Assembly (NCBI RefSeq): GCF_030144855.1
Contig: NC_082712.1
Coordinates: 90,210,001 to 90,274,000 of the forward strand
DNA length: 64,000 nt
Source of the DNA: Hypanus sabinus
Taxonomy: Eukaryota
Direction of reading: 5' to 3'
This document shows positions 11,570 through 63,489 of this stretch, piece after piece (the first letter of the stretch is position 1; every line of letters begins with the position of its first letter). The position numbers were made by a program, and so were the translations under genes. A model generated the notes under the pieces. It had not been told where the DNA came from. It did not search any database and was given only the letters and a program-made list of their open reading frames with translations.

Positions 11570-11896
11570 GTGAAAGAGATGTCTGGGCAAACTCCACAGA
11601 GGTCACAGTAAAAGCAGGGGAAAATCTAACCCTCCATTTTTCCCACAATCTGAAATGTTTTACATCTAATCTACACCTAACCTGGAAGCAAGACAGAAAC
11701 TTGGTTGCTTTCATGAGCGTTGGCCAGGAGCGACAAGTAAAACAGAACCTTGGTGTTTCGGCCAACTATATTAATGGAAATGCCACTCTGCTGCTACAAA
11801 ACATCACACCTTCCCAAGCAGGCAACTACACATGTTGCTTTAAAGATTACGCCTCCACTGAAGAACGTTGTGCGGTCATAAATGTTGTCATCACAG
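11570..11896 (+). CDS. Gene 1, IgV-domain exon (single-V IgSF protein)
   Basis: Acceptor ttcttttcatcctag|GT, donor ACAG|gtaact; 327 bp, phase 1-1, open: ERDVWANSTEVTVKAGENLTLHFSHNLKCFTSNLHLTWKQDRNLVAFMSV...NATLLLQNITPSQAGNYTCCFKDYASTEERCAVINVVIT. Shows C-strand Trp, E-strand LxLxNI and F-strand GxYxC. Confidence 0.9.
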
Positions 11897-11947
11897 GTAA
11901 CTTGGAATAGTCTTTGCTTCAGAATCGGGTTTATGATCACTGGCGTT

Positions 11948-14380: not shown

Positions 14381-14395
14381 GTTGGTGAAACCAAG

Positions 14396-17180
14396 TGTAG
14401 CCCCCCCCCCCACCCTGGTAAGCCTCAGGCTCGCTCAGCTCACTTCCGTCTGGGGGGAGCAGTGATCAGTAGCTGCTGTTTGATTTTCTTCAGCCTCCTG
14501 CAATCGAGACATCAGCTTCTTCTCTGACTCCTCCAACTCTCGCCACAGTCTCAGCAGTTCTGACTCACGCTTCATGTTTATCTCCATCTGGAACACAGTT
14601 ACTCCACCAGCTTCTTGCACCCTGACCTGAAAAGCAGCCGTTAAAGATTGGTCAGCCTCCCGTTTAGTGTTCACTGAACTTATCTCCAGCTTTTTCTTCC
14701 TAATGACTTCTTCCAGGTCATCTTTCAGGTATCCCACTTCATTAATTGTTTGTCACCCGGGCTCCGGCACTCGCCTCGCATTATAGTTCCCCAAGGTGAA
14801 CGCAAACCGTAGACGATCGTCCACATACATCAAAACTCCAAACACCTCCACATCCCCCATGGTCTTCCACATGCCCTGCTGGAAGGTTGCAAGGACTCTG
14901 GATATGCCCTGTGGCATCTTTTTGGACCGGAAGAATCCTAGAGGACCTATAATGGCCGTCTTCTCCTTGTCGGCCTCACTCATCGGGATCTGGCAACATC
15001 CACTCCTCAGATCCAGCACCCTAAACCACTTTGCACCACTCAGACAGACCATCGCCTCTTCGGCCCTCAGGACAGTATTCTGGTCAATGACAGAGAGCCT
15101 GTTCAGAGTCCTATAATCCACACACACACTGCCTACATCTTCCATGGGGCCAGTTGCCACGACCTCTCTCTCACTGAGGTGTCTTCAGCAGTCAACTCCC
15201 CTCCCTCGTGGTATTTCAGAGCGTCCACTAAGAGGGACTCACCCTCAGGCACTCCCCCGAGGCTGTACCACCACCAGCTCTCGTTTAAATTTGGTACCGG
15301 CCCAATGCTGCTACACATGTCCTCACAAGCAGCTCGAAACACTGGGTGCACAGGCAATGCCTCCAAACAGCGCTCATCCGCCTCCTCCTGGCAGGCCCCC
15401 ATGTGCCTCCTTACCAGCGGGGTGTTGGTTCCCTCCAGAATCGAAACGCTGCCCATCTCGACAGTGTCCGGACACATCAGCATTAATGATTCACGAACCT
15501 CAGTCACCCCCAAATTGGCCTCCAAGAACTCCAGTTTCACTGACCAATAACCGTCATCTGGATAATCACCAGCACTGGTATCCTAAATCTCCAGTTGCCC
15601 TCAATGTTGACAGGGGTAAATGCTTCAAATACCGGTTGTAAAATGAACTGTACAGCAACTTGACCTGCGCCCCGGTGTCGAGGAGGGCTTTAGCGTAGCT
15701 ACCATCCATCCGTAACAACACCCGAGTGCATGGTCCCTCTAAGCCTTCAGGAAGAGGGTCTGTTCCTTTCAGGAGTTCCTTGGTACATTGCTGAGAACAT
15801 GCGACCCCAAGCCATTCCCCCACTAGGCCTCCTCTAAGTTTCCTGACACCGCTCAGATCAGCTGAACAACTGAGGGAGGGGCTGATCCCCCTGGCACCAC
15901 AAACAATTTATGCCCCCCCCCCCCAAGCCAAAGAAGATACCCTGAAAACTTTCCACCAATCTCCTGAAACAGATATGGTAAGTCCCCCAGCTGCGGCATT
16001 TTACTTCCAGTTGAACTAAACACATTTTCCCCCGCTTTCAGATAACTGGCTGTTGTCACTTTGAGGTAATTGGACCAGACAGATCTAACAACATCACCAG
16101 CCTGCCTACTCAAATTTCCAATCAATCCCTGTCGCTTTCCCTCAGCCAAGTACTGCCAAACACCTAACAACTGAGAGATCCGCTCTGCCCATGCCTACAC
16201 CCCTTTAGGGCTGGACATTATTCCAATAGCCGGTCTACCATAGCTGAAACATTCCGACCAGTATTTCCTCTCTATCCCAACAGTATGAACAGCCTATGGT
16301 CCCACCACCATTTCCTGCTGGTCTAAACTCGAACAACAACCCCCAGGGTACCAACCACCACCCCACCCAACATGCATGCAGTGATAACCAGCAATCGCAC
16401 ACCAGTTTTCCGTCCCCGCAGCATGCATAATTTAAAGAGGGCGATCACACAGCTTCCACAAAATCCAATCCCAGATGAGCCCCCACAATGTAGCCCCCTG
16501 GTAAGCCTCAGGCTCGCTCAGCATGCTGCCGTCTAGGGGGAGCAGCCTTTAGCCCCGCCAAACTGGGTAATCAGCTTGTGTAGATGCTGTGTGATGTCCT
16601 CACCACGCCAAATCACAGACAGTACACCGTATGCAATTAAATTATTACACTTTATAGATCGTACTGGAACAATGTAATTAATAGAGATACAAAAGTAAAG
16701 GAAAGTAAACGGAGCCAAACTTATCAAAGTCCAACCATTTCATGCATAACTGTTGGAGCTCAGTTAACGAAGTCTTCTTGCCACCATTCGATCCCCTCTG
16801 ACCTCGACCCGCCACCTCAGACCAACAACGGTTGTCGACCAGACACAATCCACATGAATCTGTCCTCATCTCCTCTCCTCGCCTAAACCCTGGGCTTCAG
16901 ACCCCCGCTCAGGATCCGTTCTGTCGCCCAGCTTACAGCATCACGTCTCCTCTCTCTATCCCCATTGTGCCTTCTCCCCAAAGCCCGCGAAACAATTGCT
17001 TACAGACCCACAAGAAAGAATAACATCTATCCCAATTGGTTAACAAATGGATACAATTCTCGTTATCAGTAATTATAACCCAAACAAGCTGTGAGAGAAA
17101 AGCACTTTCTCTGCAGTTACCATAACAAAGAAGCATTTTTATTAGCCTTAACAGTAACATAAAAGAAGAAATCCCTTTCA
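14396..17180 (-). mobile_element. Internally deleted Gypsy/Ty3 LTR retrotransposon (element B)
   Basis: Perfect 4-bp TSD CAAG (14392-14395, 17181-17184). 5' LTR 16489-17180; tRNA-Pro-like PBS at 16468-16485 (rc TGGGGGCTCATCTGGGAT); protease ALLDTGAQV (15566-15823); RT with [14 protein letters not shown] and YVDD (14753-15160); only about 67 bp of the 3' LTR remain (14396-14462). Confidence 0.9.
14463..14752 (-). pseudogene. Captured sarcomeric myosin heavy-chain rod fragments (MYH16-like) inside element B
   Basis: Open frame QTINEVGYLKDDLEEVIRKKKLEISSVNTKREADQSL..RVQEAGGVTVFQMEINMKRESELLRLWRELEESEKKLMSRLQEAEE. It matches three separate rod segments as recalled ([76 protein letters not shown]). 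Paralog identity needs BLAST. Confidence 0.75.
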
Positions 17181-17472
17181 CAAGATAATTGTTTGCCTTT
17201 ATAACACCATAAGACACAGGAGCAATATGAACCGCTTTGACTCATTGAGTCTCTTCCGCCATTCGATCATGGTTGATTTACTATCCCTCTCAACCCCATT
17301 CTCCTGCCTTCTCCCTGTAAACTTTGATGCCCTTGCTAATTAGGAACCTATTAAGCTCGACTTTAAATTTATCCAGTGACTTGACCTCCACTGCTGTCTG
17401 TGGCAATGAATTCCACAGATTCACCAAATCCTAGCTAAAGAAATTCCTCCTCATCTCTGTTCTAAAGGGACG

Positions 17473-21380: not shown

Positions 21381-24300
21381 TGTTATGAGTGATGAACAGA
21401 CCTGATGGACAATGGGGTAAAGAGTTAACCATCCCCCCCCCCCCAAGAACCATGAACTATTACTGTTGCTATGCTGACCATGAGAAAGAGAGACGAAAAA
21501 CAGGCAAGAACATCTGTGACAGATAAGAGAGAGGGGGAAATTGCTGAGTAACTGTATTGTGACTCCTTTTTGAATTATTTACTGTTTCGCTGCAAGGACA
21601 ATAGTTTGCTCAATAACATTCCTCAGTGGACTGCAGGAGTGGTCTAATTTGATGAACACAGTCATTCAGAATTGATGGATAGCTGAGACCCCGTGAGTAG
21701 GGATAAAAAGACAGGTCTGGAGAGACACCCTCCAGACACGCCAGTGGACACTGATTGAGTGTTGAAACCCACAAGAAAGGTGGGGGCTTCGGAGACCGAA
21801 TCAGGAGATCGGTCAGTAAATCTCACAGTGTAACAGCAGGGCCGGTGGGGACTTGTGTGTGTGTCCACTCATGCCAGAGTGACGAGTCCACCACAGAAGA
21901 ACGGTCTGGCTGAAGACCAGAGGGGTCATAACTGAATGAGCACAACAATACGACGGATTAAGAAAGCAAAGGAAAGTTTGGCTGCTGTAGCTGTTACATC
22001 TCGCTCTCTCTCTCTCTCCCGCTCCAACGATTACAGCTCAACAAGCATAACTACCTCAGCACGCATGAACTGAACTGAACTTTATATTCTATGACAATTC
22101 ATTTACCCCTAGACATTGATAGAGCTTGTTTATTAATGATTATTACTATTCCTACACTTTTAGGTTTATTACTGCTACCTTGTGTTATATGTATATTTGC
22201 ATTATTGATATGGTTTGGCTTATTTTTATTAATAAACACCTTTAAATATAGTACCACCAGACTCCAATGGATTCTTCTTTCTCTGCTGGTCAGACACCCA
22301 GTTACGGGGTACGTAACAAATTGGGGCCTCGTCTCGAGATTTGATTACCAAATTAACGGGCCAGTGAATCGGGATAAAAGTCCCTTATCTGATCTGGTTG
22401 TGAGATTAACCAGACGGGAAACCAGCAGAGATGGACATGGTCAAATTTTTAAAAGACCCGACTGCAGGGGCATTGGAGGTTGCCAGGAAGGCTGAATTGG
22501 TGAATGATGCAAAATGATTAGATCTCCCAGAGGTGAAATCGTCGGTGAGAAAGGTGGATATACAGAGAGAAATAGCTATGCATTATGTATCCAAGGGTGT
22601 GTTCACACCAGATGTATTGGACCTGTTCCCTGAGAGGAAATCAGCCAAGGGGGAGGTTCAGTTAGAGATAGTAAAATTAAGGTTGGCTGAGGAAGAGGCA
22701 GCATGAACTTTGGATAAGGCAGCTGGAAGCAGAGAGAGAAGCTGCAGGGTGAAGACAGGATGCTGAGAAGTGAAGGGAGGAAGCTGAGAGGGAGGTTGAA
22801 AGGAGGAGAGAGGAGGCTGAGAGGAAGAAGGAAGAAGCTGAAAGGCAGATGGAGGAAAGGGAGAAAGAGAGCCAGCATGCGCTGGAAATAGAGAGATTAA
22901 AGGTACAGCAGGGAAGAGACCGGGCGGCAGACCCAAATGAGGGGTTCAAGATTGGTCAGGAGATCCAGTTGGTACCTCCATTCGAGGAGATGGATGTTGA
23001 TAAGTTCTTCCTCCATTTTGAGAGAGTGGCTGTGAATCAGAACTGCCCAGAGGGGAAATGGGCTGTTCTGTTACAGAGCGTACTTCGGGGGAAGGCTCAG
23101 CAAGCGTATTCGGCATTGTCCATGGATGAGTCTAGGGACTATGAGGAAGTAAAAAGGGCTGCACTGAGGAGTTACGAGTTGGTGCCAGAGGCATACCGGC
23201 AGAAGTTCCGGATCTTGAGAAAGCCGTAGGACCACACGTATTTAGAGTTTGCCCGTGAGATGCAAATATATTGTGAGCGTTGGTGCACCTCAAAAGGGGT
23301 TGATGAAGATTATGATAAACTGTTACAGTTAAGACTGATGGAGCAATTTAAAAGTTGTATCCCTGAGAGTATGAAGACGTAATTGGACGAGAAGGATTCA
23401 GAGACTGTCTGCGACTGCCAAGTTAGCAGACAAGTATGCTTTAACCCACAAGTCAAAGTTTTCCTCAAATAACTACCAGAGAGGCAGTAGGGACAGAAAG
23501 CCTACCGACTAAGGCAGAGAATAAGCTGGGAGCTAGTGGAAAAGGGAAGGAGGAGGAAAAGCAGGCTGGCAGGAAGGTTCCTAGCTTTACCTGTTATAAT
23601 TGTGGGAAAGCTGGTCATATAGCCTCTAAATGCTTTGCTCCGAAAAATGAGACGGGAAAAGGGAAAACAGCAATCCCTACTGGTTGCATTGAGTCCGTCA
23701 ACAGATCGATGAGGAAGGCAAAGGTAGGTAGAGCACAAGAGGGCGTGAGGTTTATCTCGAAAGGGACGGTGTCTGTGAAGGAAGGAGAAACACCAGTTCC
23801 AGTGCGGAACTGGACAGATACTGGGGCTGGTCAGTCATTGATTTCAAAGAAGGTATTAGATTTTGGTTCTGAGATCCAGACTGGGGAGGCTGTGTGAAGA
23901 GGTATCGGAAAAGGGACCAAGGTCGTACCTTTGCACAGGATATTTTTGAAATGTGACCTGGTATCTGGACCAGTCGAAATAGGGGTGAGATCAAAACTAC
24001 CGATGGACAGCATGGACGTCCTACTTGGTAACGATCTGGCCGGTGGTGACGTGTATTCAGCAGTGAAACTGACAAGCCAGCCTGTAAATGCTGAGGACCC
24101 ACCCATAGATTCTAAGATTTATCCTGCATTCGCAATCACTCGCAGCATGTCTAGAAAGGCGGCTGAGAAAAGAGCCAGTTTAAATGAATCCAGTGTTGAT
24201 TTAGCGGAGACATTTTTGCTGACCTTGTATGAAAAGGGGTACCGGATGAGAAGGAAAAGGATAGTGGGGTGAAAGAGAGTAAAGGAGAGGAGGTAGATCC

Positions 24301-27300
24301 ACCTGTAACCCCCTGGGTCACCTCAGGCTCGCTCAGCTCGTTCCCGTCTAGGGGGAGCAGCCTTCGGCCCCGCCAAACTGGGTAATCAGCTGGTGTGGAT
24401 GCTGTGTGATGTCCCCACCTCGCCCAAAACCAGACAGTACACCATAAGCGATTAAATGAGTACAATTTATAAAGGTTACTATAACTAAGTGATTAATAAT
24501 GATACAGTATATATGAAGAGAAAAAAATAAAGAAAAGGCGCCAAACTTATCAAAGTCCAAACCACTTCGTGCACAACCGTTGGAGCTCAATTACTGAAGT
24601 CTTCTGGCCACCATTCGCTCCCCTCCGAACTCCTCGACTCGCAGCTCAGGACCCTCCGAGTGGTCAACCAAGCACATCTAGCTTCATCCCCCCTCCTCGG
24701 AGTACCTCCTGGCCTCGGACCCCCGCTTGGGGTCCGATCCTCACCCAGCTTACAGCATTGCGTCCTCTCTCTCACACCCCCTCGCGCCGATCTGCCCAAA
24801 AGCCCGTCAACAACCGCTTACAGACTCAGAAGAAAGAACAACATTAATCCCCATTTGGTTTACAAAGGAATACAATTCTCGTTATCAGTAAATTTTAACC
24901 CAAACAAGCTTCCAGCACTCTCTCGCAACAAAGGAGCATTCCTGCTTTTAACAAAACAAAGAAGCCCTTTCCCAACAAGCTTCCAGCACTCTCTCACAAC
25001 AAAGAAGCATTCCTGCTAGTTAACAAAACTAAGAAGCCCTTTTGATTACATACACAGTAACAAAGAAAAAAGAAGAAACCCCCTTTACGCACCCTTAGCC
25101 AGGAGGGACTTTATGGAGGCACAGGGTAAAGATGAGAAACAGATAAGGCAGTTAGAAGGTCCAGGGTTGGACACGGATGATCTGTCTGGCTTGACAGAGC
25201 AGTTTGCAGTTGAAGAATTTAAATGTGTTCCCGATAATGATGTATGGCTGTCCTAGATGAAAAGGATGCCGCTACCTTGAGGGAGTCTGCTGGGTTAGCA
25301 GACAAGGTTGTTTTAACCCGCAAGGTTGAGTTTACTCCAGATGGAAGGTGCCCAGAGAGTAACTGGGAGGATCAGAGGAATTTAGGATTTGAAAAGGGGA
25401 CTGGTATTGAAAGCCTGGAAGAGGTAGGTGTCCCGTTTGCGTGTGTTCAGGGTGTGAAGGGTGTGGATGCACAGGGTACTGAACCTAGTATTGAAACTCA
25501 GGAAAAGTCTGCGGTATCTGATTTAGTTGAAAAGGAATGCAGTCCTTTTGGGTCAGATGGACTTGGTTCAGTGAAGAAAGGGTTAACCTTGGTACCAGTG
25601 GAAAGTGACAATTCTCAGTTGTTTGTGTTAGAAGGTGTGTTAAAAATTAATGATGAGATAAAAGCTGGTGATGTGACTATTATTGAAGGAGAAGGGAAAG
25701 GTGTTGTTCCTGAATTGAATAAAGAAAATTTAAAGTCTGAATTGGTTTCAGAAGGATTGACAAAAGGGAAGGGACCATTAACTGAACAATGGCCTGTGAA
25801 CAAGGTGCCTGTGAATCAATTACAATTTGTTTGGAAATTTAAAGATAAACAACTTGCTGATGTTATTCAAGTATGTGATTTGGAGAGGCAGAACTTGAAA
25901 TGTTGTTTTGACCAAGAGGGATCATCTGCTGCTGTTAAACTGAAAACAAATAGAATGAAAGATCCTAAAGATAAAATTAATGACTTGCTTAAAATTAACA
26001 AATTATGTGGAAGTTCAACAAATGGGCTTAGTTTGGAAAACATTGGTGATAAGATAGCTCCTGTGAAAGGAGACTGTGAAGGCCTATTCCACACTGGTGA
26101 GCAAGCTAACCACGTGAGAGTTCAGTGGAAAAGGGACAAAGGTTGACCAAATGCCACTTTGAATAACAGGATCTGGTTTTGAGGGAATTTGACAAAGCAT
26201 GTGAAAGATAAAAACACCATGGAAGATTGACTGTTTGAATGTTAAGTTTAAAAGTAAAATAGAGATTAGTATTTGCACAAACTTTTGTAATGTGCTATAT
26301 TATAATCACGCATGTATTGGTTCACACTTTGTAATATACACCTAAGCTAAGAACACAACCCCTTTAGAATTTTTTTAACATGAAAAGTAAAAAGTAGGCG
26401 ATTATTAAATTGGAGTCTGTTGTTACAGGAATTCAATATTAAAATACAACATGTAAAGGGGAGTGATAATGTTATTGCTGATTATTTATCTAGATGTTAA
26501 TTTTAACGTGTATCTGTATTATTCATGTAGTTAAGACAACTTTTGTATTTTGTTAAACTCTGTAATTCAGTTATGTGCTTTATTAGTTAATTTTCCCCCT
26601 GGTGAAAATTCCCAGAAGGATGGGGGTGTTATGAGTGATGAACAGACCTGATGGACAATGAGGTAAAGAGTTAATCATTCCCCCCCTGAGAAACACGAAC
26701 TATTACTGTTGCTATGCTGACCATGAGAAAGAGACGAAAAACAGGCAAGAACATCCGCGACAGATAAGAGAGAGGGGGAAATTGCTGATTAACCATATTG
26801 TGATTCTTTTTTGAATTATTTACTGTTTCGCTGCAAGGCCAATAGTTTGCTCAATAACATTCCTCAGTGGACTGCAGGAGTGGTCTAATTTGATGAACAC
26901 AGTCATTCAGAATTGATGGATAGCTGAGACCCCGTGAGTAGGGATAAAAAGACAGGTCTGGAGAGACACCCTCCAGACACGCCAGTGGACACTGATTGAG
27001 TGTTGAAACCCACAAGAAAGGTGGGGGCTTCGGAGACCGAATCAGGAGATCGGTCAGTAAATCTCACAGTGTAACAGCAGGGCCGGTGGGGACTTGTGTG
27101 TGTGTCCACTCATGCCAGAATGACGAGTCCACCACAGAAGAACGGTATGGCTGAAGACCAGAGGGGTCATAACTGAATGACCGCAACAATACGACGGATT
27201 AAGAAAGCAAAGGAAAGTTTGGCTGCTGTAGCTGTTACATCTCGCTCTCTCTCTCTCTCTCTCCCGCTCCAACGATTACAACTCAACAAGCATAACTACC

Positions 27301-27563
27301 TCAGCACGCATGAACTGAACTGAACTTTATATTCTATGACAATTCATTTACCCATAGACATCGATAGAGCTTGTTTATTAATGATTATTACCATTCCTAC
27401 ACTTTTAGGTTTATTACTGCTACCTTGTGTTATATGTATATTTGCATTATTGATATGGTTTTGCTTATTTTTATTAATAAACACCTTTAAATATAGTACC
27501 ACCAGACTCCAATGGATTCTTCTTTCTCTGCTGGTCAGACACCCAGTTACTGGGTACATAACA
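21381..27563 (+). mobile_element. Gmr1-like Gypsy LTR retrotransposon, internally deleted (element A)
   Basis: Paired LTRs 21381-22318 and 26627-27563 (TG...CA); TSD ATGG/ACGG (one CpG-type change); degenerate tRNA-Pro PBS at 22322-22340; PPT at 26614-26626. Gag of the SCAN-related type (FERVA...LLQSVLRGKAQQAY), CCHC knuckle CYNCGKAGHIASKC, protease DTGAGQSL, and RNase H C-terminus WSLLLQEFNIKIQHVKGSDNVIADYLSR (26402-26500). No RT or integrase core seen. Confidence 0.92.
24304..25089 (-). mobile_element. Solo LTR (element B family) nested in element A
   Basis: Starts tgtaaccccctgg..cctcaggctcgctcagc like 16489; 4-bp TSD CACC (24300-24303, 25090-25093). Confidence 0.9.
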
Positions 27564-28130: not shown

Positions 28131-31100
28131 CTGGGGTTCACGTGATGTCATGCCATTGATCGGGCGCTTCCCTGAATAACTCCTACAAAATGTTCTTTAC
28201 AACCTGTTTATAAGGCTCTTACATAACTTTAACAAAAGCGATGGTTAAAAGGAAAAATCATGGAAATCCTACTGGCGCTAGTGCTGCTGGCCCCGCACTC
28301 CCGGGGGCATATGGAGTTCAGAGACACGAGAGCGATAATAAGGCCTGATCATCGGACGGTTCCTCCGAGCCTGCAGAAGACTGCAGCAGCACGACGCAGT
28401 GCTGGCTCAGGCAGTGACCTCGCGGCCATGATTCATGAGTTGACCGATGCAGTCCGGACTTTAACCAGTAGGATGGACAAGTTCGAGAGTCACTTAGACC
28501 TTATCATTCAAGAATCTAAGGAAATGAAGCAGACTTTGGAATCTTTAAATTTGCGAGCCCAGGATTTAGAAAATAATATGAATGATGTTCTGAATAGATT
28601 ACAAAGCCTGGAAAAAGAAAAAGATTCCTGGAGGATTGAGAAAGTAAAAATAATGGATAAACTGGGCTCTCTTGAAAACTATAGAAGAAGAAATAATATC
28701 AAAATAGTGGGTTTAAAAGAGTGACTGGAAGGAAGAGACGGAGAAACTTTCTTTCAAGAATGGATTCCCAAAGTTCTGGGGAAAAAGCATTTTGACAAAG
28801 AATTAATTATAGAAAGGGCACACAGGACTTTACAACCCCGACCACTTCCACAGCAAAGGCCGCGTCCTATACTTATACGCTTTTTGAAGTATCGAGATAA
28901 ACAAAAAGTATTACGAGCTGCAGCAACAGAGGCCAGAGAGAGAAATAGCCTATTAGAGTTTACAGGGGGAAAGATATTCTTCTTTCCAGATATTAGTGTG
29001 GCCTTGTTAAGAAAAGAGAAAGACTTTGGCTTAACAAGGAGCGTAGTAAAGAATAAAGGTCTTCAATATTCTTTATTATACCCAGCAAAGCTGAGAATTA
29101 CTCTGTCTAATGGAGGGAGGAAATTTTTTACTAACCCCCAGGAGGCGATAAACTTTTTTCAAAATATCTGAGACATCGTGATTCCGAAGATCTTCTGGAA
29201 CAAGCTTAGAAAGATGTATTTTGGACAAAATATATGAAGAAGATTATTTGATTTTCTTTATTAATATAGATTAACTTTAACAACATTATAGTCTTGAACT
29301 TTGAATCAATATGATTATGGATGAAGACTATTATGATTTAAAATATTGAACTTAAAATCCATGTGATTATGGATGGAAATCACTAGGACTATTAATTTCC
29401 TATTAAGTCTATATAGGTTTTTTTTCTTTCTGGATCCTTTTGAATTATACTACTTAGGAACTATGTAGTTTATCTAATTTTGTTATAACTAGTATGAATC
29501 ATTTTGATTATATAGATATCATTTTTGATATGTTTAATTTTTTGTATGCTGGATATGTATTAAATAATAATATTTAAGGTTATATTTAGAAGTTTCTTTG
29601 AATTCTCTTCTTTATTTGGATATACTGCTATATTAATGATATTTGCTTTCAATATTATAGATTAGTTAGATATTTAGTAATAATGGGTGTGGAATATAAT
29701 TTAGTTTTTTTACAGATGTTTAATTAAGGAGTTATTAGGGACTGGATCATCTTTTTTCACTTTTTTAAAAAAAAAGATTAATTATGTTACATGCTAAAGA
29801 ATGTCCATCTTTAGTGCAATGTTTATTGGACCCCACAGTAAGAGGGGTTAAGGCCCCGTGGACTTGGAGCGCCAGTTGGGAGGGTTTTTCTCCTTTTTTT
29901 TTTCTTTTTTTTTAATTTCTTTTTTTCTTTTATTTTCTTTCCTCTCTGGTTTCCTTTCTATTTTCTATACTCTATTGAGAAAGGCACCAAATATCTCAGA
30001 GGCACTCAAAGAAATGGGATTAATTTATATTTTTTTTGTAGACAGGATTTATCAACTAATAAAATCTGATAACTATGAATAGAGCAATTAAATTTTTAAG
30101 TCTTAATGTTAATGGGATAAATGGACCGATAAAAAGGAAAAAAGTCTTGGCATATCTCAAAAAATATCATATTAATATTAACTTTCTTCAAGGAACTCAT
30201 CTTACAGTGACAGAACAGAACAAGTTAAAGAGAGGATGGGTTGGTCAAGTAATAGTGTCCTCCTTTAATTCTAAAGCCAGAGGAATGGCAGTATTGATAG
30301 GGAAGAATTTGCCAGTGAAAGTGGAGGGTACTATCATAGATCCAGCCGGGAGATTTGTTATGGTCAATTGTCAAATATATTCAGAGTTCTGGACACTTTT
30401 GAATTTATATGCCCCCAATTATGATGACGAGAAATTTATTCAAAATATTTTTCTGAAACAAGGATATGAAAATATCTTAATTGGAGGGGATTTCAATGTT
30501 TGTCTGGATCCAATTTTAGACAGATCAGTTAAAAAAGTCATGAAGGTCATGGCAGCAAAAACCACCCTGGCCTTCATGAAAGACTTGAATATAATAGATG
30601 CTTGGAGTTGGCACCATCCAAGGGAAAGAGACTACTCTTTCTATTCAAAACAATATGATTCCTACTCTAGAATTGACTTATTCCTAATATCAGCTAAATT
30701 AGAAAGTAGGATCATTCAAACAGAATATGCTATTAGACTACTCTTGGATCATTCACCTTTAATTTTATCACTTGAAATGCCTGATAAACAAAAAACATTA
30801 TATAGGTGCCGTTTTAATCTTTTGCTGTTGAAAAGACAAGGAGCTTGCAGTTTTATTAGAGCTCAATTAGAACTGTTCTGTGAGATGAACTCTCCCTCTA
30901 CTGCCAATAATATTTTATTATGGGATACATTAAAAGCTTATTTAAGAGGACAAATAATTGAATATGTTAAGGGTATAAAAAATAAATATGTAACAGAATT
31001 AAATGTATTGGAGAAAGACTCATCGAAAATTGATGATTTCTTGTCTAATTTACAACTTCCCAAATTGGGTCAACAAGATCAGGAAGAATTAAATGCCCCT

Positions 31101-33814
31101 TTTTCTAGGGATGAAATTGAAAGAGCCCTGGGCTTGCTGCAGGCTAATAAATCGCCGGGAGATGATGGTTTTCCCCCTGAATTTTATAGAGAATTTAAGG
31201 ATCAATTAATGCCCCTTTTTATGAGGGTTGTGACTCTGGCTGAGGAGACCCATACTCTACCAGATTCCTTTTCAACAGCAACTATTACATTAATTCTTAA
31301 GAAGGATAAGGATCCGCTAAAACCAGCATCTTATAGGCCTATTTCACTTTTAAATGCGGACTATAAAACTATAGCAAAGGCATTGGTTAATAGATTAGCC
31401 CGATGTCTGTCAAAATTGATTAAATCCGATCAAACAGAATTTATTAAAAACAGACAATTGTCTGATAATATTGGCAGACTATTGACTATATTACATTTAG
31501 CTAAGACGAAGGTGGACCCAACTGTAGCAGCAGCTTTAGATGCTGAAAAGGCCTTTGATAGGCTTGAATGAGATTTTTTATTTAAAACAATGGAAAAATT
31601 TGGTCTAGGCCAAATATTCATAAATTGGATAAGAACACTTTACCACCAGTCTAAGGCCAAAATAATTACGAATGGGCGGATTTCACCAGTTTTCTCTCTA
31701 CATAGATCTAGTAGGCAAGGTTGCCCACCATCTCCAGTTCTATTTGTTTTGGCAATAGAGCCATTGGCGGAGGCTGATGGATGGGTTCCAGACATAAAGG
31801 GGTTTAAAGTGACCCAGGAAGAATATAAAATTAATTTATTTGCTGATGACATTTTAGTATATTTGGCTGACCCGGCCGGCTCTTTGGTAAGACTTAGGGC
31901 CTTGCTGGACAATTATGGTATAGTCTTGGGATACAAAATAAGTTGGAATAAAAATGAAATGTTACCTTTAGGTAAAGGAGACTATGCCCAATATCAATAT
32001 GGCACTCAGTTTAGATGGGTTAATTCCAACATGAAATATCTGGGAATTCAATTTAATCGTAATTTGGATGACCTTTATAAACTTAATTATCTCCCCTTGC
32101 TGCAGAATGTCGAGGAGGACCTATATCGGTGAATAAACCTGCCCATCACACTGACGGGCAGGGTAAGCTGTATAAAAATGAGGATAATGCCAAGACTTAG
32201 TATTTTTTTCAGTCTTTACCTATCCCATTACCTAATAATTTTTCTAAGATTCTCAATGGACATGTTCGATAATTTTTATGGTCAGGTAAAATATCTAGAA
32301 TCTCCATGGAAAAATTGACCTGGGACTATAAATTGGGAGGGTTAAAATTACCAGATTTTAAAAAATATTGTTTAGCTGCACAAGCACGTTTCATTGCTTC
32401 TTTTTTTTTGATGAGACGACTATTCCTTCTTGAGTTACAATTGGCTTTCATATGGTAGGAGAAGAGATGCCAGAAGAATTTATATATAATGGGACTCCAA
32501 ATTAATTAAAAAGAAAGCAATCAGTCCTCTACTGAGACATGTAATTTATGTCTGGGAAAAAAATTAAACAATTTATGGGTCTGAAAAAAGGAATATCCTC
32601 AAAGGCGCCTCTATCTCAGAACGGATTAATACCCATGACTCTGGGTAATAAATTTCTAGTCACCTGGTATCAACATGGTCTCAGGTGCATTGAAGATTGT
32701 TATAATCAGCAGAGGCAATCTATGCCTTTTGAGGGGCTTAAAAATAAATATAATTTATCTAATAATACATTCTTCCGCTATCTCCAATTACGATCTCTTT
32801 TGAGGGTCTGTTTGGGTCCATCACTGGCCATACCAAGTTGCTCAGACATGGAGATTCTAATTCAAAAGGAGAATATAACTAAATTTATCTCTAATGTGTA
32901 TTCTTTATTCTGGGACCAATGCCCAAAGTCTGGTATATATAGTTCGACGGAAAGATGGGAGTCGGATTTGGGCATTGTAATTGATCACCAATGCTGGTCA
33001 CATCTGTGTTTGGATAGTGTTACCACTCTTATGAACTCTAGATACAGAATGATACATTTTAATTTTTTATATCACTTATGTCTCACACCTGAAAAAATAC
33101 ATGAAATTTCTGACAAGTGTTTTGGGTGTGGCATAGATGTTGGTACCTTTGTGCATTCCACCTGGCTATGTATGAAACTCAGATCTTTTTGGATAGATTT
33201 GGGGGATGTACTGGGAAAGATTCTGGGGATGGATTTCCCCCTGGACCCAGAATTGTTTCCTCTGGGGAATTTGGCAGTTTTGAAAGCTAGCCTCTCTAGG
33301 AATAAATCCAAATTTATTAAAATTGCATTGTCAGTAGCCAGGAAATGCATAGTGGTAACATGGAAATCCAATTCCCTTGTACATATTGATTGTGGAATAA
33401 AGAAATGCAAAGTTGTATACCCCCTGAGAAGATTATTGATACCCTTAGGAATAGATACGCTATGTTCATTGAGATTTGACAACCATATTTGGATTACTTA
33501 AATGCCGGGATTGTTTAACTTACTTATTTTAATTCTTTTAAATTAATATATCCCTTATTATAAGCTAGTTTCTTAAATTTGTATTTTAAACTGACTCTGA
33601 GAGCTGGATGCCTACTCTTTTACTTTTTATTTCTCTTTTCTTTCTTCTTCTCTCCTTTCCTTTCTTTCCTCTGTCTCTTATGTTTTGGGATAGGTGTTCT
33701 TTTTCCTCTTGGATTTATTAATCTATTTGAATTAATTTTTTTCAATGTGTATCAAATGTTGTATTAATTGAGTCCTTATATTTCTTCTTTTAAAAAAAAT
33801 TGAATAAACTATGA
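28131..33814 (+). mobile_element. Full-length degenerate L1-clade LINE
   Basis: 13-bp TSD aaaaaacatcaat at a tttt/aaaaaa site. ORF1 remnant (RRNNIKIVGLKE, ERAHR, YSLLYPAKLRI); ORF2 endonuclease (SLNVNG, GDFN, SRIDLF, DHSP), RT (KSPGDDG, DAEKAFD, RQGCP, LFADD) and C-terminal CxxC..H..C; several stops and frameshifts. Confidence 0.93.
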
Positions 33815-46218: not shown

Positions 46219-49200
46219 AAGCGCAGCAAGAGGCGGAAAGGGAAGAGGTAAAAGAAGCTCGGAGAGAAGCTGTTTTTTTAAAACTGATCACGGCAAAGAG
46301 GCTAAACTGCACGGGCGCATGATGTAGCGTGCCAAAGGTTTAAAAAGAAAGACCGCCATATACAGCAGCCATCGTCGGAGTGGACCGGCTTTGGCTCAAT
46401 CAGGCAGAGGCGAGGTTGAACGGGGCACAACTGCGCAAGCGCGTGGAAGTCAGCCCGTGAAGTGGCGAGGGAATTTAAAAGGTGAGCAGAGGCTGAGTAT
46501 GAGCTTCACTCCAGGTGAGGTAAGACCGGGTAAGCTCCTTTAATTAATCTAGTTAGCTTAGGAGTAGGTAATGGAGGCAGCAGATGGGGCAGTTGAGTGC
46601 CCCGTATGTAGTATGTGGGAAATCAGGGCGAGCACAGCTGTCCCTACACCTGCGAAAGGTGCATCCAGCTGCAGCTCCTGACAAACCGTGTTAGGGCACT
46701 GGAGCTGGAGCTGGATGAACTTCAGATCCTTCGGGAGGCAGAGGCAGAAATAGACAGGAGTTTCAGGGAGGTAGTCACCCCTAGGAGTCAGGAGACAGGT
46801 AGTTGGGTGACTGTCAGGAGAGGGAAGGGGAATAGACAGGAAGAGCAGAGGACTCCTGTGGCCATTCCCATCAACAATAAGTATACCGTTTTGGGTACCG
46901 TTGGTGGGGACGGCCTACCAGGGACAAGTTGCAGTGGTTGTGTCTCTGGCACCAAGACTGGACCCTCAGCTCAGAAGGGCAGGAGGGAAAAGAGGAGAGC
47001 AGTAGTGATAGGGGATTCGATAGTTAGGGGGACAGATAGGAGGTTCTGCGGAAGAGATCAAGAATCCCAGATGGTCTGTTGCCTCCCTGGTGCCAGGGTC
47101 TACAATATCTCGGATCGAGTTCTCAGTATTCTCAAGAGGGAGGGTGAGCAGCTGGATGTTGTTGTCCGTATAGGGACCAATGACATGGGTAGGAAGAGTG
47201 AGGAGGTCCTGAAAGGTGAGTTTAGGGAGCTAGGCGCCAAGTTAAAGGACAGGACCTCCAGGATAGCAATCTCAGGATTGCTACCAGTGCCATGTGCAGG
47301 TGGGTTTAGAAATAATAAGATGGTGCAGATCAACACATGGCTGAAGACATGGTGCAGGAGGAAGGGCTTCAGATTTATAAATAATTGGGCAGTTTTCTAG
47401 GGAAGGTGGGACCTGTTCCGGCGGAACAGTTTATATCTGAACTGGAGGGGGACAAATATTCTTGCAGGTAGGTTTGCTAGAGAGGCTCCAGTGGATTTAA
47501 ACTAGATACAAGGGGGGAGGGGAACCAGAGTGTAGGAACAGATGTATGGGAGAAGGAAGAAAAAGAAGACAGAAGAGTTATTTGTATTGTTAGAGATAAA
47601 CAGAGAGGAAGAGGTGGAGAGTTTCTTAAATGCATTTATTATAATGCTAGGAGCATTGCAAGAAAGGTGGATGAGCTTAGAGCATGGATTGATACCTGGA
47701 AATATGATGTTGTAGCTATTAGTGAAACATGGTTGCAGGAGGGGTGTGAATGGCAACTAAATATTCCTGGATTTCGTTGCTTCAGGTGTGATAGAATCAG
47801 AGGGGCAAGAGGGGGAGGTGTTGCATTGCTTGTCAGAGAAAATATTACAGCGGAGCTCTGACAGGATAGAGGGCTCGTCTAGGGGGGCTATTTGGGTGGA
47901 ATTGAGGAATGGGAAAGGTGTAGTAACACTTATAGGGGTGTATTATAGACCACCTAATGGGGAGTGAGAATTGGAGGAGTAAATTTGCAAGGAGATAGCA
48001 GTTATTTATAGTAAGCACAGGGTTGTGATTGTGGGAGATTTTAATTTTCCACACATAGACTGGGAAGCCCATACTGTAAAAGGGCTGGATGGCTTGGAGT
48101 TCGTAAAATGTGTCCAGGATAGTTTTTTGCAGCAATACATAGAGGTACCAACTAGAGAAGGGGCAGTGTTGGACCTCCTGTGAGGGAATGAGATAGGTCA
48201 GGTGACGGAGATGTGGGTTGGGGAGCACTTCGTGTCCAGTGATCACAATGCCATTAGTTTCAATATAATTATGGAGAAGGATAGGACTGGACCCAGGGTT
48301 GAGATTTTTGATTGGAAAAAGGCTAACTTTGAGGAGATGCAAAAGGATTTAGAAGGAGTGGATTGGGACAAATTGTTTTATGGGAAGGATGTAATAGAGA
48401 AATGGAGGTCATTTAAAGGTGAAATCTTGAGGGTACAGAATGTTTATGTTCCTGTTAGGTTGAAAAGAAAGGTTAAAAGTTTGAGAGAGCCATGGTTTTC
48501 AAGGGATATTGGAAACTTGGTTAGGAAAAAGAGAGATATCTACAATAAATATAGGCAGCATGGAGTAAATGAGGTGCTCGAGGAATATAAAGAGTGTAAG
48601 AAGAATCTTAAGAAAGAAATTAGAAAAGCTAAAAGAAGATACGAGGTTGCTTTGGCAAGTAAGGTGAAAATAAATCTGAAGGGTTTCCACAGTTATATTA
48701 ATGACAAAAGGATAGTGAGAGATAAAATCGGTCCCTTAGAGAATCAGAGTGGACAGCTAAGTGTGGAGCCGAAAGAGGTGGGGGAGATTTTGAACAATTT
48801 CTTTTCTTCGGTGTTCACAAAGGAGAAGGATATTGAATTGTGTAAGGTAAGGGAAACAAGTAGGGAAGTTATGGAAACTATAACGATTAAAGGGGAGGAA
48901 ATACTGGCACTTTTAAGGGATATAAAAGTGGATAAATCTCCGGGTCCTGACAGGATATTCCCTAGGACCTTGAGGGAGGTTAGTGTAGAAATAGGAGGGA
49001 CTCTGACAGAAATATTTCAAACGTCATTAGAAATGGGGATGGTTCAATACTCTGATCTATAAAGGCCAGCAGACCAAAAGCTTTCTTCACCACCCTATCC
49101 ACATGAGGTTCCACTTTTGGGAACTATGCACCATTATTCCTAGATCACTCTGTTCTACTGCATTCCTCAATGCCCTACCATTTACCATGTATGTAGAGGA

Positions 49201-61273: not shown

Positions 61274-62877
61274 CAAACCCCATTTCCAGAAAAGTTGGGA
61301 TATTTTCCAAAATGCAACAAAAACAAAAATCTGTGATATGTTAATTCACGTGAATCTTTATTTAACTGACAAAAGTACAAAGAAAAGATTTTCAATAGTT
61401 TTACTGACCAACTTGATTGTATTTTGTAAATATACACAAATTTAGAATTTGATGGCTGCAACACACTCAACAAGGGTTGGGACAGAGGCATGTTTACCAT
61501 TGTGTTACATCACCTTTCCTTTTAATAACACTTTTTAATCGTTTTGGAACTGAGAATACTAATTGTAGTAGATTTGCAATTGGAAATTTTGTCCATTCTT
61601 GCTTGATATAAGACTTTAGCTGCTCAACAGTCCGTGGTCTCCGTTGTCTGATTCTCCTCTTCATGATGCGCCATACATTTTCAATAGGAGATAGATCTGG
61701 ACTGGCAGCAGGCCAGTCAAGCACACGCACTCTGTGTCTACAAAGCCACGCTGTTGTAGCCCGTGCAGAATGTGGTCTGGCATTGTCCTGCTGAAATAAG
61801 CATGGACGTCCCGGGAAGAGACATCGCCTTAATGGCAACATATGTCTCTATAAAATCCTTATATACGCCTCAGAGTCAATGGTACCTTCACCTGCATGCA
61901 ACTCACCCATGCCATGGGCACTGATGCACCCCCATACCATCACAGATGCTGGCTTTTGCACCTTTCGCTGATAACAAACAGGATGGTCGTTTTCATCTTT
62001 GGCACGGAGAACTCGACGCCCGTTTTTTCCGAAAACTAGCTGAAATGTGTAATCATCTGACCACAGCACACGTTTCCACAGTCTTTCGGTCCATCTGAGA
62101 TGAGCTCGGGCCCAGAGAACTCGCCAGCATTTCTTCATAGAGTTGATGTATGGCTTCCTCCTTGCGTAATACAGTTTCAAGTTGCATTTCTGGATGCAGC
62201 GACGGACTGTGTTAAGTGACAATGGTTTTCCGAAGTATTCCCAAGCCCAGGTGGTTATAATTGTCACGGTAGCATGACGGTTTCTTAGGCAGTGCCGCCT
62301 GAGGGCTCGAAGATTACGCGCATTCAACAGTGGTTTCCGATCTTGCCCTTTACGCACTGAGATGTCTCTGAATTCTCTGAATCTTTTCACAATATTATGT
62401 ACTGTCGATGTTGAAAGACCTAAATTCTCTGCAATCTTGTGTTGGGAAATGTTCCTTTTGAACTGACTAACAATTCTCTTACGAATTTTGGCACAAAGGG
62501 GTGAGCCATGACCCATCGTTGCTTGCAAAAACTGAGCCTTTGATGTACGCTACTTTTATATCCAGTGATGATACCTCACCTGCTACCAATTAGCCTGCTT
62601 AATGTGGAGTCTTCCAAACTGGTGTTATTTGAATATTCTGTGCACTTTTCAATCTTATTTTAACTCTGTCCCAACTTTTGCTGAGTGTGTTGCAGCCATC
62701 AAATTCTAAATTTGTGTATATTTACAAAATACAATTAAGTTGGTCAGTAAAACTATTGAAAATCTTTTCTTTGTACTTTTGTCAGTTAAATAAAGATTCA
62801 CATGAATTAACATATCACAGATTTTTGTTTTTGTTGCATTTTGGAAAATATCCCAACTTTTCTGGAAATGGGGTTTG
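61274..62877 (-). mobile_element. Full-length Tc1 (DD34E) transposon with 213-bp TIRs
   Basis: TA TSD on both sides; TIRs 61274-61486 and 62665-62877; transposase from ATG 62516 to 61494 (340 codons plus stop) with WSD, QDNA and PIE motifs; one in-frame TAG at 61848-61850. Confidence 0.95.
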
Positions 62878-62945
62878 TACAAAGGACTTTACTTCTTTCA
62901 CGGGTCCTTGTTCTCACCAGACCAGTCAAGTGCGGATCCGTGCAG

Positions 62946-63141
62946 TGAGGTCTGGGAGGAATTGTCAATGGTCAGTGCAGAGGATGTGGAGTGGTGAGGT
63001 CTGGGAGGAATTGTCAATGGTCAGTGCAGAGGATGCGGAGTGATGAGGTCTGGGAGGAGTTGTCAATGGTCAGTGCAGAGGATGTGGAGTGGTGAGGTCT
63101 GGGAGGAATTGTCAATGGTCAGTGCAGGGGATGTGGAGTGG
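62946..63141. repeat. Four 49-bp tandem copies within the Tx1 fragment
   Basis: Unit tgaggtctgggaggaattgtcaatggtcagtgcagaggatgtggagtgg starting at 62946, 62995, 63044 and 63093. Confidence 0.95.
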
Positions 63142-63489
63142 CTGGATGCTCCCATCCTTGAACTGGGTTGTCTACAGCCCTTCAGAAACTCCAGAGGGTC
63201 AAGTCCCCTGGCCTAAATGGCCTGACCATTGAGTTATTTCAGGTTCTGTGGCACATCCCGGGGGATGATTATAGTCTTGCTCAGCCAGAATTGCTCATTG
63301 GACCTAGGCCGTGGAATCTTACACATAAGCTAACCCTCAAACTCTGAGCGGTCTCTCATCGACAATCCAGTCCCTTTTGGAGATGCAGGTAGGACTACAC
63401 CTCCACACCATCCAGTTCCTAGCTCTTGTTCACCGTCCCGACCTGGCGTGGGGGTCGGCCTTGATGAGGATGGGGATATGTTAGTTCAG

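Follow-up and report, generated by a model that had tools for sequence, protein, structure and literature searches.

How a fragment of a muscle myosin came to lie inside a retrotransposon of a ray, and whether it has been anything there but a passenger, are the questions raised by a short locus in the genome of Hypanus sabinus. The window, by which we mean the whole 64,000-nt stretch of DNA that was analysed, contains an LTR element of 2,785 nt on the minus strand (17180-14396), in which the place between a truncated reverse transcriptase (RT) and the remnant of the 3' LTR is taken by a frame resembling myosin rod. We propose that this element is very probably one decayed member of a Gypsy family, non-autonomous and carrying captured pieces of MYH16, that is found in stingrays and devil rays. 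Its parts are given below in 5' to 3' order, in window coordinates, followed by a solo LTR of the same family; P0003 is a fish myosin-16-like protein that serves as the reference for rod positions.

17181-17184, unstranded: CAAG, target-site duplication on the 5' LTR side (flanking repeat)
16489-17180, minus strand: 5' LTR, 692 nt, TG...CA, whole; 76.6% over 623 columns against the solo LTR at 24304-25089
16470-16488, minus strand: primer-binding-site-like (PBS-like) sequence adjoining the 5' LTR, recognised by sequence inspection
15856-16194, minus strand: PNMA-type gag fragment (Pfam PF14893, E 6.5e-7)
15569-15907, minus strand: protease region, in a frame that differs from that of the gag piece (Pfam RVP, E 0.084, a weak match below cut-off)
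15136-15582, minus strand: protease-RT linker region, 70% to Hypanus P0043 (aa 1-128) and 69% to Mobula P0175 (aa 6-79)
14756-15184, minus strand: 5' part of a Gypsy RT, ending about 19 codons past YVDD (Pfam RVT_1, E 1.2e-7; 57-78% identity to the RT of 7 relatives)
14753-14755, minus strand: TGA stop separating RT and myosin, which lie in the same frame (frame reading)
14735-14746, minus strand: INEV, a junction microsimilarity, like both the RT continuation of relative P0029 and the myosin of P0001, at the protein level only
14627-14746, minus strand: myosin rod piece A (P0003 aa ~1058-1096), running intron-free across a putative exon boundary near 14696
14528-14626, minus strand: myosin rod piece B (P0003 aa ~1139-1171), past a 42-codon deletion, by alignment to P0003
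14486-14527, minus strand: myosin rod piece C (P0003 aa ~1380-1392, or ~1376-1392 in the gapped alignment), past a 208-codon deletion between two ELEE repeats, by alignment
14396-14491, minus strand: 3' LTR remnant, about 96 nt, the LTR 3' end only, with internal gaps; 45/50 nt to the 5' LTR at 14413-14462 and 17/21 nt at 14468-14491
14392-14395, unstranded: CAAG, target-site duplication on the 3' side (flanking repeat)
24304-25089, minus strand: solo LTR belonging to this LTR family, flanked on each side by CACC and contained in another LTR element (LTR comparison)

The TG...CA ends, the short target duplication and the gag-protease-RT order, its RVP match being below cut-off, place the element in the Ty3/Gypsy group; the RT of a relative, P0174, matches Ty3 Gag-Pol in the PDB (7q5b, E 4.9e-8). 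The Gypsy anatomy described in the initial annotation is thus borne out by the LTR ends, the PNMA gag, the RVT_1 match and the duplication found on both sides, and so is the sense orientation of the myosin frame within that duplication. The gag, protease and RT pieces are decayed and sit in differing frames. The PBS-like site may correspond to tRNA-Pro; ARAGORN found no tRNA genes in the window, and an Rfam scan gave no match. Neither a polypurine tract (PPT) nor a poly(A) precedes the 3' LTR remnant, the longest A run being 5. Between RT and myosin there is no RNase H or integrase frame and no room for one before the LTR remnant, and the element is therefore non-autonomous.

Further mobile sequences lie elsewhere in the window. 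A second LTR element, of another family, occupies 21381-27563, with LTRs of 938 and 937 nt (907/933 identical) and a zinc-knuckle gag, and had no RT or integrase Pfam match in the four frames scanned; the solo LTR of the myosin-carrying family is nested in it. An AT-rich LINE at 30063-33501 encodes an endonuclease and an RT in extended frames of 502, 186 and 318 aa, and another LINE, at 46612-49831, has a GDSL-esterase-like ORF upstream of its RT. A Tc1/mariner transposon lies at 61272-62879, with 216-nt inverted repeats that are 98% complementary and with HTH_Tnp_Tc3_2 and DDE_3 in two consecutive ORFs, and tandem arrays of 52-nt and 49-nt units are found at 59361-60904 and 62946-63189. Two V-set Ig exons are present on the plus strand (11571-11897 and 56508-56921), the first with AG/GT splice signals; the myosin element lies antisense to it, 2.5 kb downstream.

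The frame of interest runs from stop to stop on the minus strand (14752-14435), encodes 105 aa and extends into the 3' LTR remnant. What had been annotated as one stretch of myosin rod at 14463-14752 is indeed rod, yet it proves to be three separate pieces within about 14746-14486, collinear and non-contiguous, joined by two in-frame deletions and without an intron-sized gap relative to myosin inside any of them. Against P0003, with long gaps allowed, the insert has a gapped score of 198.6, as compared with a mean of 65.0 and a maximum of 89.1 for 300 shuffles and with 69.6 for the reversed query. Piece A is identical at 26/39 residues to P0179, a MYH16-like protein of the batoid Narcine, at 17/36 to the fish myosin-16-like protein, and at 16/33 to a fish fast myosin. 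Because the insert is split into three pieces, its single-sequence matches to myosin are weak: the top 11 of 16 PDB matches of the ORF are myosin II or an MYH7 chimera, with a best E of only 0.0038, and Pfam Myosin_tail gave no match for the ORF, nor was any myosin family matched by the relatives P0001 and P0002. The score and the identity to the batoid protein uphold the proposed origin in a myosin II rod. BLASTN found no second copy of the myosin part within the window.

The lower end of the insert can be placed more narrowly than in the initial annotation. The resemblance of 14468-14491 to the LTR (17/21 nt) was equalled by 1 of 5000 shuffles and by 5 of 4966 random 24-mers from the window; the last eight or so codons of the interval first described are thus probably LTR remnant, although the relative P0001 aligns through those codons ungapped, and the myosin part therefore spans about 14746-14486. 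Together the three pieces make up about 87 rod codons and include no motor domain; they do not constitute a myosin gene. The frame is free of introns and stops, as had been reported, but its length is unremarkable, since the window contains 6294 stop-to-stop segments, of which 73 are at least 105 aa long, and the element itself has four decayed gag-pol pieces of 113-149 aa; on these counts the open frame was ruled out as a sign of selection.

Relatives of the element in rays are known from predicted proteins alone. With the window ORF as query, two proteins were found among 234 candidates, one from Mobula hypostoma (77% identical) and one from M. birostris (63%), both of them carrying the two internal junctions of the window copy and having longer ends. 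A profile of the window and these two proteins matched 247 proteins at E 0.001, 13 of which were retrieved for inspection; a second profile gave 76 matches, with the 19 myliobatiform models named here filling 19 of the top 22 rows, 7 of the 19 having already been in that profile's query alignment. Seven of the models belong to M. hypostoma, five to M. birostris, six to Hypanus sabinus and one to Hemitrygon akajei, and two more proteins come from Narcine. Lying as they do on 17 contigs of 54-256 Mb in four species and two ray families, the 19 predicted proteins support the suggestion that the element may have been amplified as a family.

An RT 57-78% identical to that of the window is present in 7/19 models, the other 12 and the Narcine proteins being at background. 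Junction B-C is found in 12/19 models and junction A-B in 9/19, each in both Mobula and dasyatids; a common acidic tail, entered where the myosin is left near aa 1412, is shared by 12/19, and a non-myosin flank motif by 18/19. Elsewhere in the family the rod jumps, in P0003 residues, from ~991 to ~1135, from 1080 to 1373 and from 1084 to 1389, so that at least six deletion types exist among the copies, which jointly cover about aa 903-1412, with a median identity of 65% over 96 pairs. The copies, as predicted proteins, form a nested deletion series. Since each of the two window junctions is present in Mobula as well as in dasyatids, we infer that the capture and both deletions are older than the Mobula-dasyatid split, barring horizontal movement of the element. 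The adjacency of RT and myosin could be a product of splicing or frameshift correction within the gene models.

Some relatives have short motifs between RT and myosin that we take to be the RT thumb and RNase H; on that reading the first junction would fall within RNase H. A search of this linker for RNase H gave 0 Pfam matches, a best value of 0.77 in the ESM Atlas and no such match in the PDB, and a search of the acidic tail for a pol tail gave only myosin-labelled and unnamed clusters in the ESM Atlas; a plasmid tblastn search returned no match. P0030 of M. hypostoma and P0177 of M. birostris, both on contigs of ~255 Mb, differ at 3 of 169 residues and are probably one orthologous insertion. 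P0025 and P0175, both of M. birostris and on different contigs, are identical at 188/191 residues, which reflects either recent mobility or duplication. One Hypanus sabinus model, P0031, is named SDHAF3 isoform X1 and has an LYR domain joined to pieces B-C and the family tail, a fusion that is either exonisation or an annotation artefact.

The affinity with MYH16 was examined in a tree of 28 rows that comprised the window, 14/19 named relatives (P0031, P0043, P0049, P0175 and P0178 being left out as short or redundant) and other myosins, without MYH7B, MYH15 or full-length shark myosins. The 15 family rows form one clade (support 97.4/100), which is sister to the Narcine host-type protein P0179 (99.7/100), and both join with fish MYH16 (98.8/100). 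The grouping is unchanged when the tree is anchored on fast myosin, and placement with the fast and cardiac myosins is rejected (AU p=0.003), in agreement with the initial preference for MYH16 over MYH7-type sequence. Monophyly of the Mobula copies could not be rejected (p=0.18), and most of the amplification may accordingly post-date the split of the two ray families and be lineage-specific. A word-index search, which is weak evidence on this point, found no full-length elasmobranch MYH16 among 22 long matches, all of them teleost or arthropod myosins. MYH16 is the masticatory or jaw myosin and is reported in shark jaw muscle (PMC6402096). The ray insert groups with myosin-16-like proteins, and differs from MYH16 in its small size, its three pieces and its want of a motor domain.

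Whether the source was a spliced transcript can be approached through exon boundaries. The two Narcine bancroftii proteins, P0179 and P0037, are short isoform models, without RT and without the A-B deletion, and the isoforms separate at the counterpart of MYH7 codon 1113, where the variant c.3337-3dup places the start of an exon (PMC3546296). Three bird or alligator partial models likewise start or stop at the MYH7 c.3337 boundary, and because these models and the Narcine isoforms break there, the host gene would have conventional introns. A manakin partial myosin model, P0187, ends exactly at the residue matching the IRK of piece A, where the window copy runs on without an intron. This is the one intron-less exon junction of the window copy with sequence support, by way of the end of a bird paralogue model; a second is presumably crossed in piece C. 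The manakin model end thus supports, indirectly, the earlier proposal that a spliced host mRNA, here of MYH16, was the source. The exon boundaries obtained from the literature searched were limited to c.3337, c.2923 and c.3853. Exon skipping was considered as the cause of the A-B junction and rejected, the junction lying 7 residues before the host exon end.

We propose that the RT of an ancestral PNMA-gag Gypsy element left its own template for a spliced MYH16 transcript and later returned, so that an in-frame segment covering at least P0003 aa ~903-1412 would have taken the place of the 3' end of pol together with the integrase. The likely route is a template switch to a co-packaged mRNA; read-through from an element located within MYH16 itself, a possible though less likely route, would explain germline access. 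Having retained its LTRs and PBS, the chimera could have been copied in trans by intact elements, and repeated short-homology jumps in the repetitive rod would have produced the nested deletions. Once inserted at CAAG, the window copy would have been shortened further, in the RT by a loss at the INEV similarity and at its other end by removal of the tail, the PPT and the greater part of the 3' LTR, and it would have gathered frame breaks. Under standard LTR replication, the intact 5' LTR makes it probable that the 3' end was lost when the copy was already in place.

In this scheme the myosin is most likely a passenger without function. All three junctions of the window copy (RT-myosin and the two internal ones) keep the frame, which is weakly suggestive only, since jumps between similar codons are expected to do so and the annotated relatives were pre-selected for frame. 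It is improbable, though worth considering, that the rod was no passive passenger, in that an open Gag-Pol-myosin frame was favoured while the family was mobile and some copies, such as P0030/P0177 or P0031, were later kept by the host; the advantage of the fusion may have been a dimerising coiled coil that aided packaging into helper particles, or escape from nonsense-mediated decay.

An origin through LINEs or through repair of a break is unlikely. A LINE-made processed pseudogene, or a cDNA used to patch a break, would have landed in a resident Gypsy element, its hallmarks being deleted later and the composite then mobilised. LINEs are abundant in the window, as judged from RVT_1 matches, and the window junctions are secondary, so that original hallmarks could have vanished; the initial annotation had itself raised the case of a separate insertion with its own target duplication or poly(A). 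None of these was seen around the insert, where secondary deletions may have hidden them. The insert comes from the middle of the rod, shares the orientation and reading frame of pol, and lacks the mRNA 3' end. Moreover, pol was replaced rather than interrupted, and the shared exit near aa 1412 into one acidic tail in 12/19 models is at odds with such an origin.

We consider it most improbable that a single chimeric locus was multiplied by segmental duplication and not by retrotransposition. The near-identity of P0025 and P0175 on two contigs would fit, as would the fact that the relatives are known as proteins alone; against this stand the spread over 17 contigs in four species, the six or more deletion types, the median identity of 65% and the clean target duplication of the window copy. 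Equally remote is the view, built on the initial annotation, that the myosin forms an accessory coiled-coil ORF of its own, under selection and occupying the position of env. Both internal deletions and the RT junction preserve the frame in the window copy, and P0030 and P0177 are only 3/169 residues apart across two Mobula species. The myosin nevertheless lies in the RT frame behind a TGA stop, with its first Met at codon 56 and no integrase upstream, and RT and myosin are fused in relatives; the frame is of ordinary length, different copies delete different pieces, gene prediction favours relatives that are in frame, and a jump from one codon to a similar one usually preserves the frame. Finally, generic coiled-coil similarity, to which the missing Myosin_tail match and the poor PDB E value might point, and an assembly chimera can be set aside, given the shuffle test, the 26/39 identity to the batoid protein and the occurrence of the same junctions in records of four species.

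The capture of host sequence by retroelements has precedents. Acutely transforming retroviruses carry gag-onc fusions in which host coding sequence replaces replication genes in frame, making them helper-dependent. The comparison with oncogenic retroviruses made in the initial annotation holds to the extent that host sequence replaces part of the ray element and makes it dependent on helpers, and extends no further, neither env nor infectivity having been seen, nor anything to indicate selection on the captured piece or a function for it. The maize element Bs1 reportedly carries fragments of three plant genes, and in human HERV-K/FAM8A1 the FAM8A1_r sequence is said to sit in an ERV (both as cited in PMC5131818); these too are LTR elements with cellular gene fragments, whereas the ray element holds a single muscle gene within a PNMA-gag Gypsy.

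The closest parallel is with the LTR-mediated retrocopies of Tan et al. 2016, which, in the sections drawn on here, derive from a partial mRNA truncated at both ends that replaces an internal part of the ORF, lack a poly(A), show short similarities at their junctions, and in some cases were re-mobilised as non-autonomous elements, with zebrafish and chicken among the examples (PMC5131818). The ray insert is likewise flanked by LTR-element sequence, replaces internal ORF and has no poly(A), and microsimilarity is seen at the junctions of the ray copy, which are secondary. The re-mobilised cases in those sections are young fly polymorphisms (18 sites for nine retrocopies), and cartilaginous fishes are not among the species listed there (PMC5131818). 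The ray element, by contrast, is represented by 19 or more models, spread over 17 contigs and two families of rays, with a median identity of 65% and nested deletions. No description of a myosin-carrying LTR family in rays was found in the literature searched, which excluded most subscription papers, and myosin or MYH occurs 0 times in the main text of two stingray genome papers (PMC10787021, PMC12946260). The process is thus already known, and the ray family is apparently undescribed.

The family provides an example from vertebrates in which a Gypsy element, after capturing host gene sequence, endured and proliferated in two families of rays. It raises the question of how a transcript of jaw muscle could have encountered retrotransposon particles in the germline, and of whether these rays keep an intact MYH16; it is improbable, though conceivable, that the copies are the only remaining record of a MYH16 lost in them. 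NCBI names 7/19 of the models MYH16 or myosin heavy chain, and such names would inflate counts of myosin genes in rays. The nested deletions, for their part, provide a natural series for measuring the shrinkage of non-autonomous elements and selection on their reading frame.
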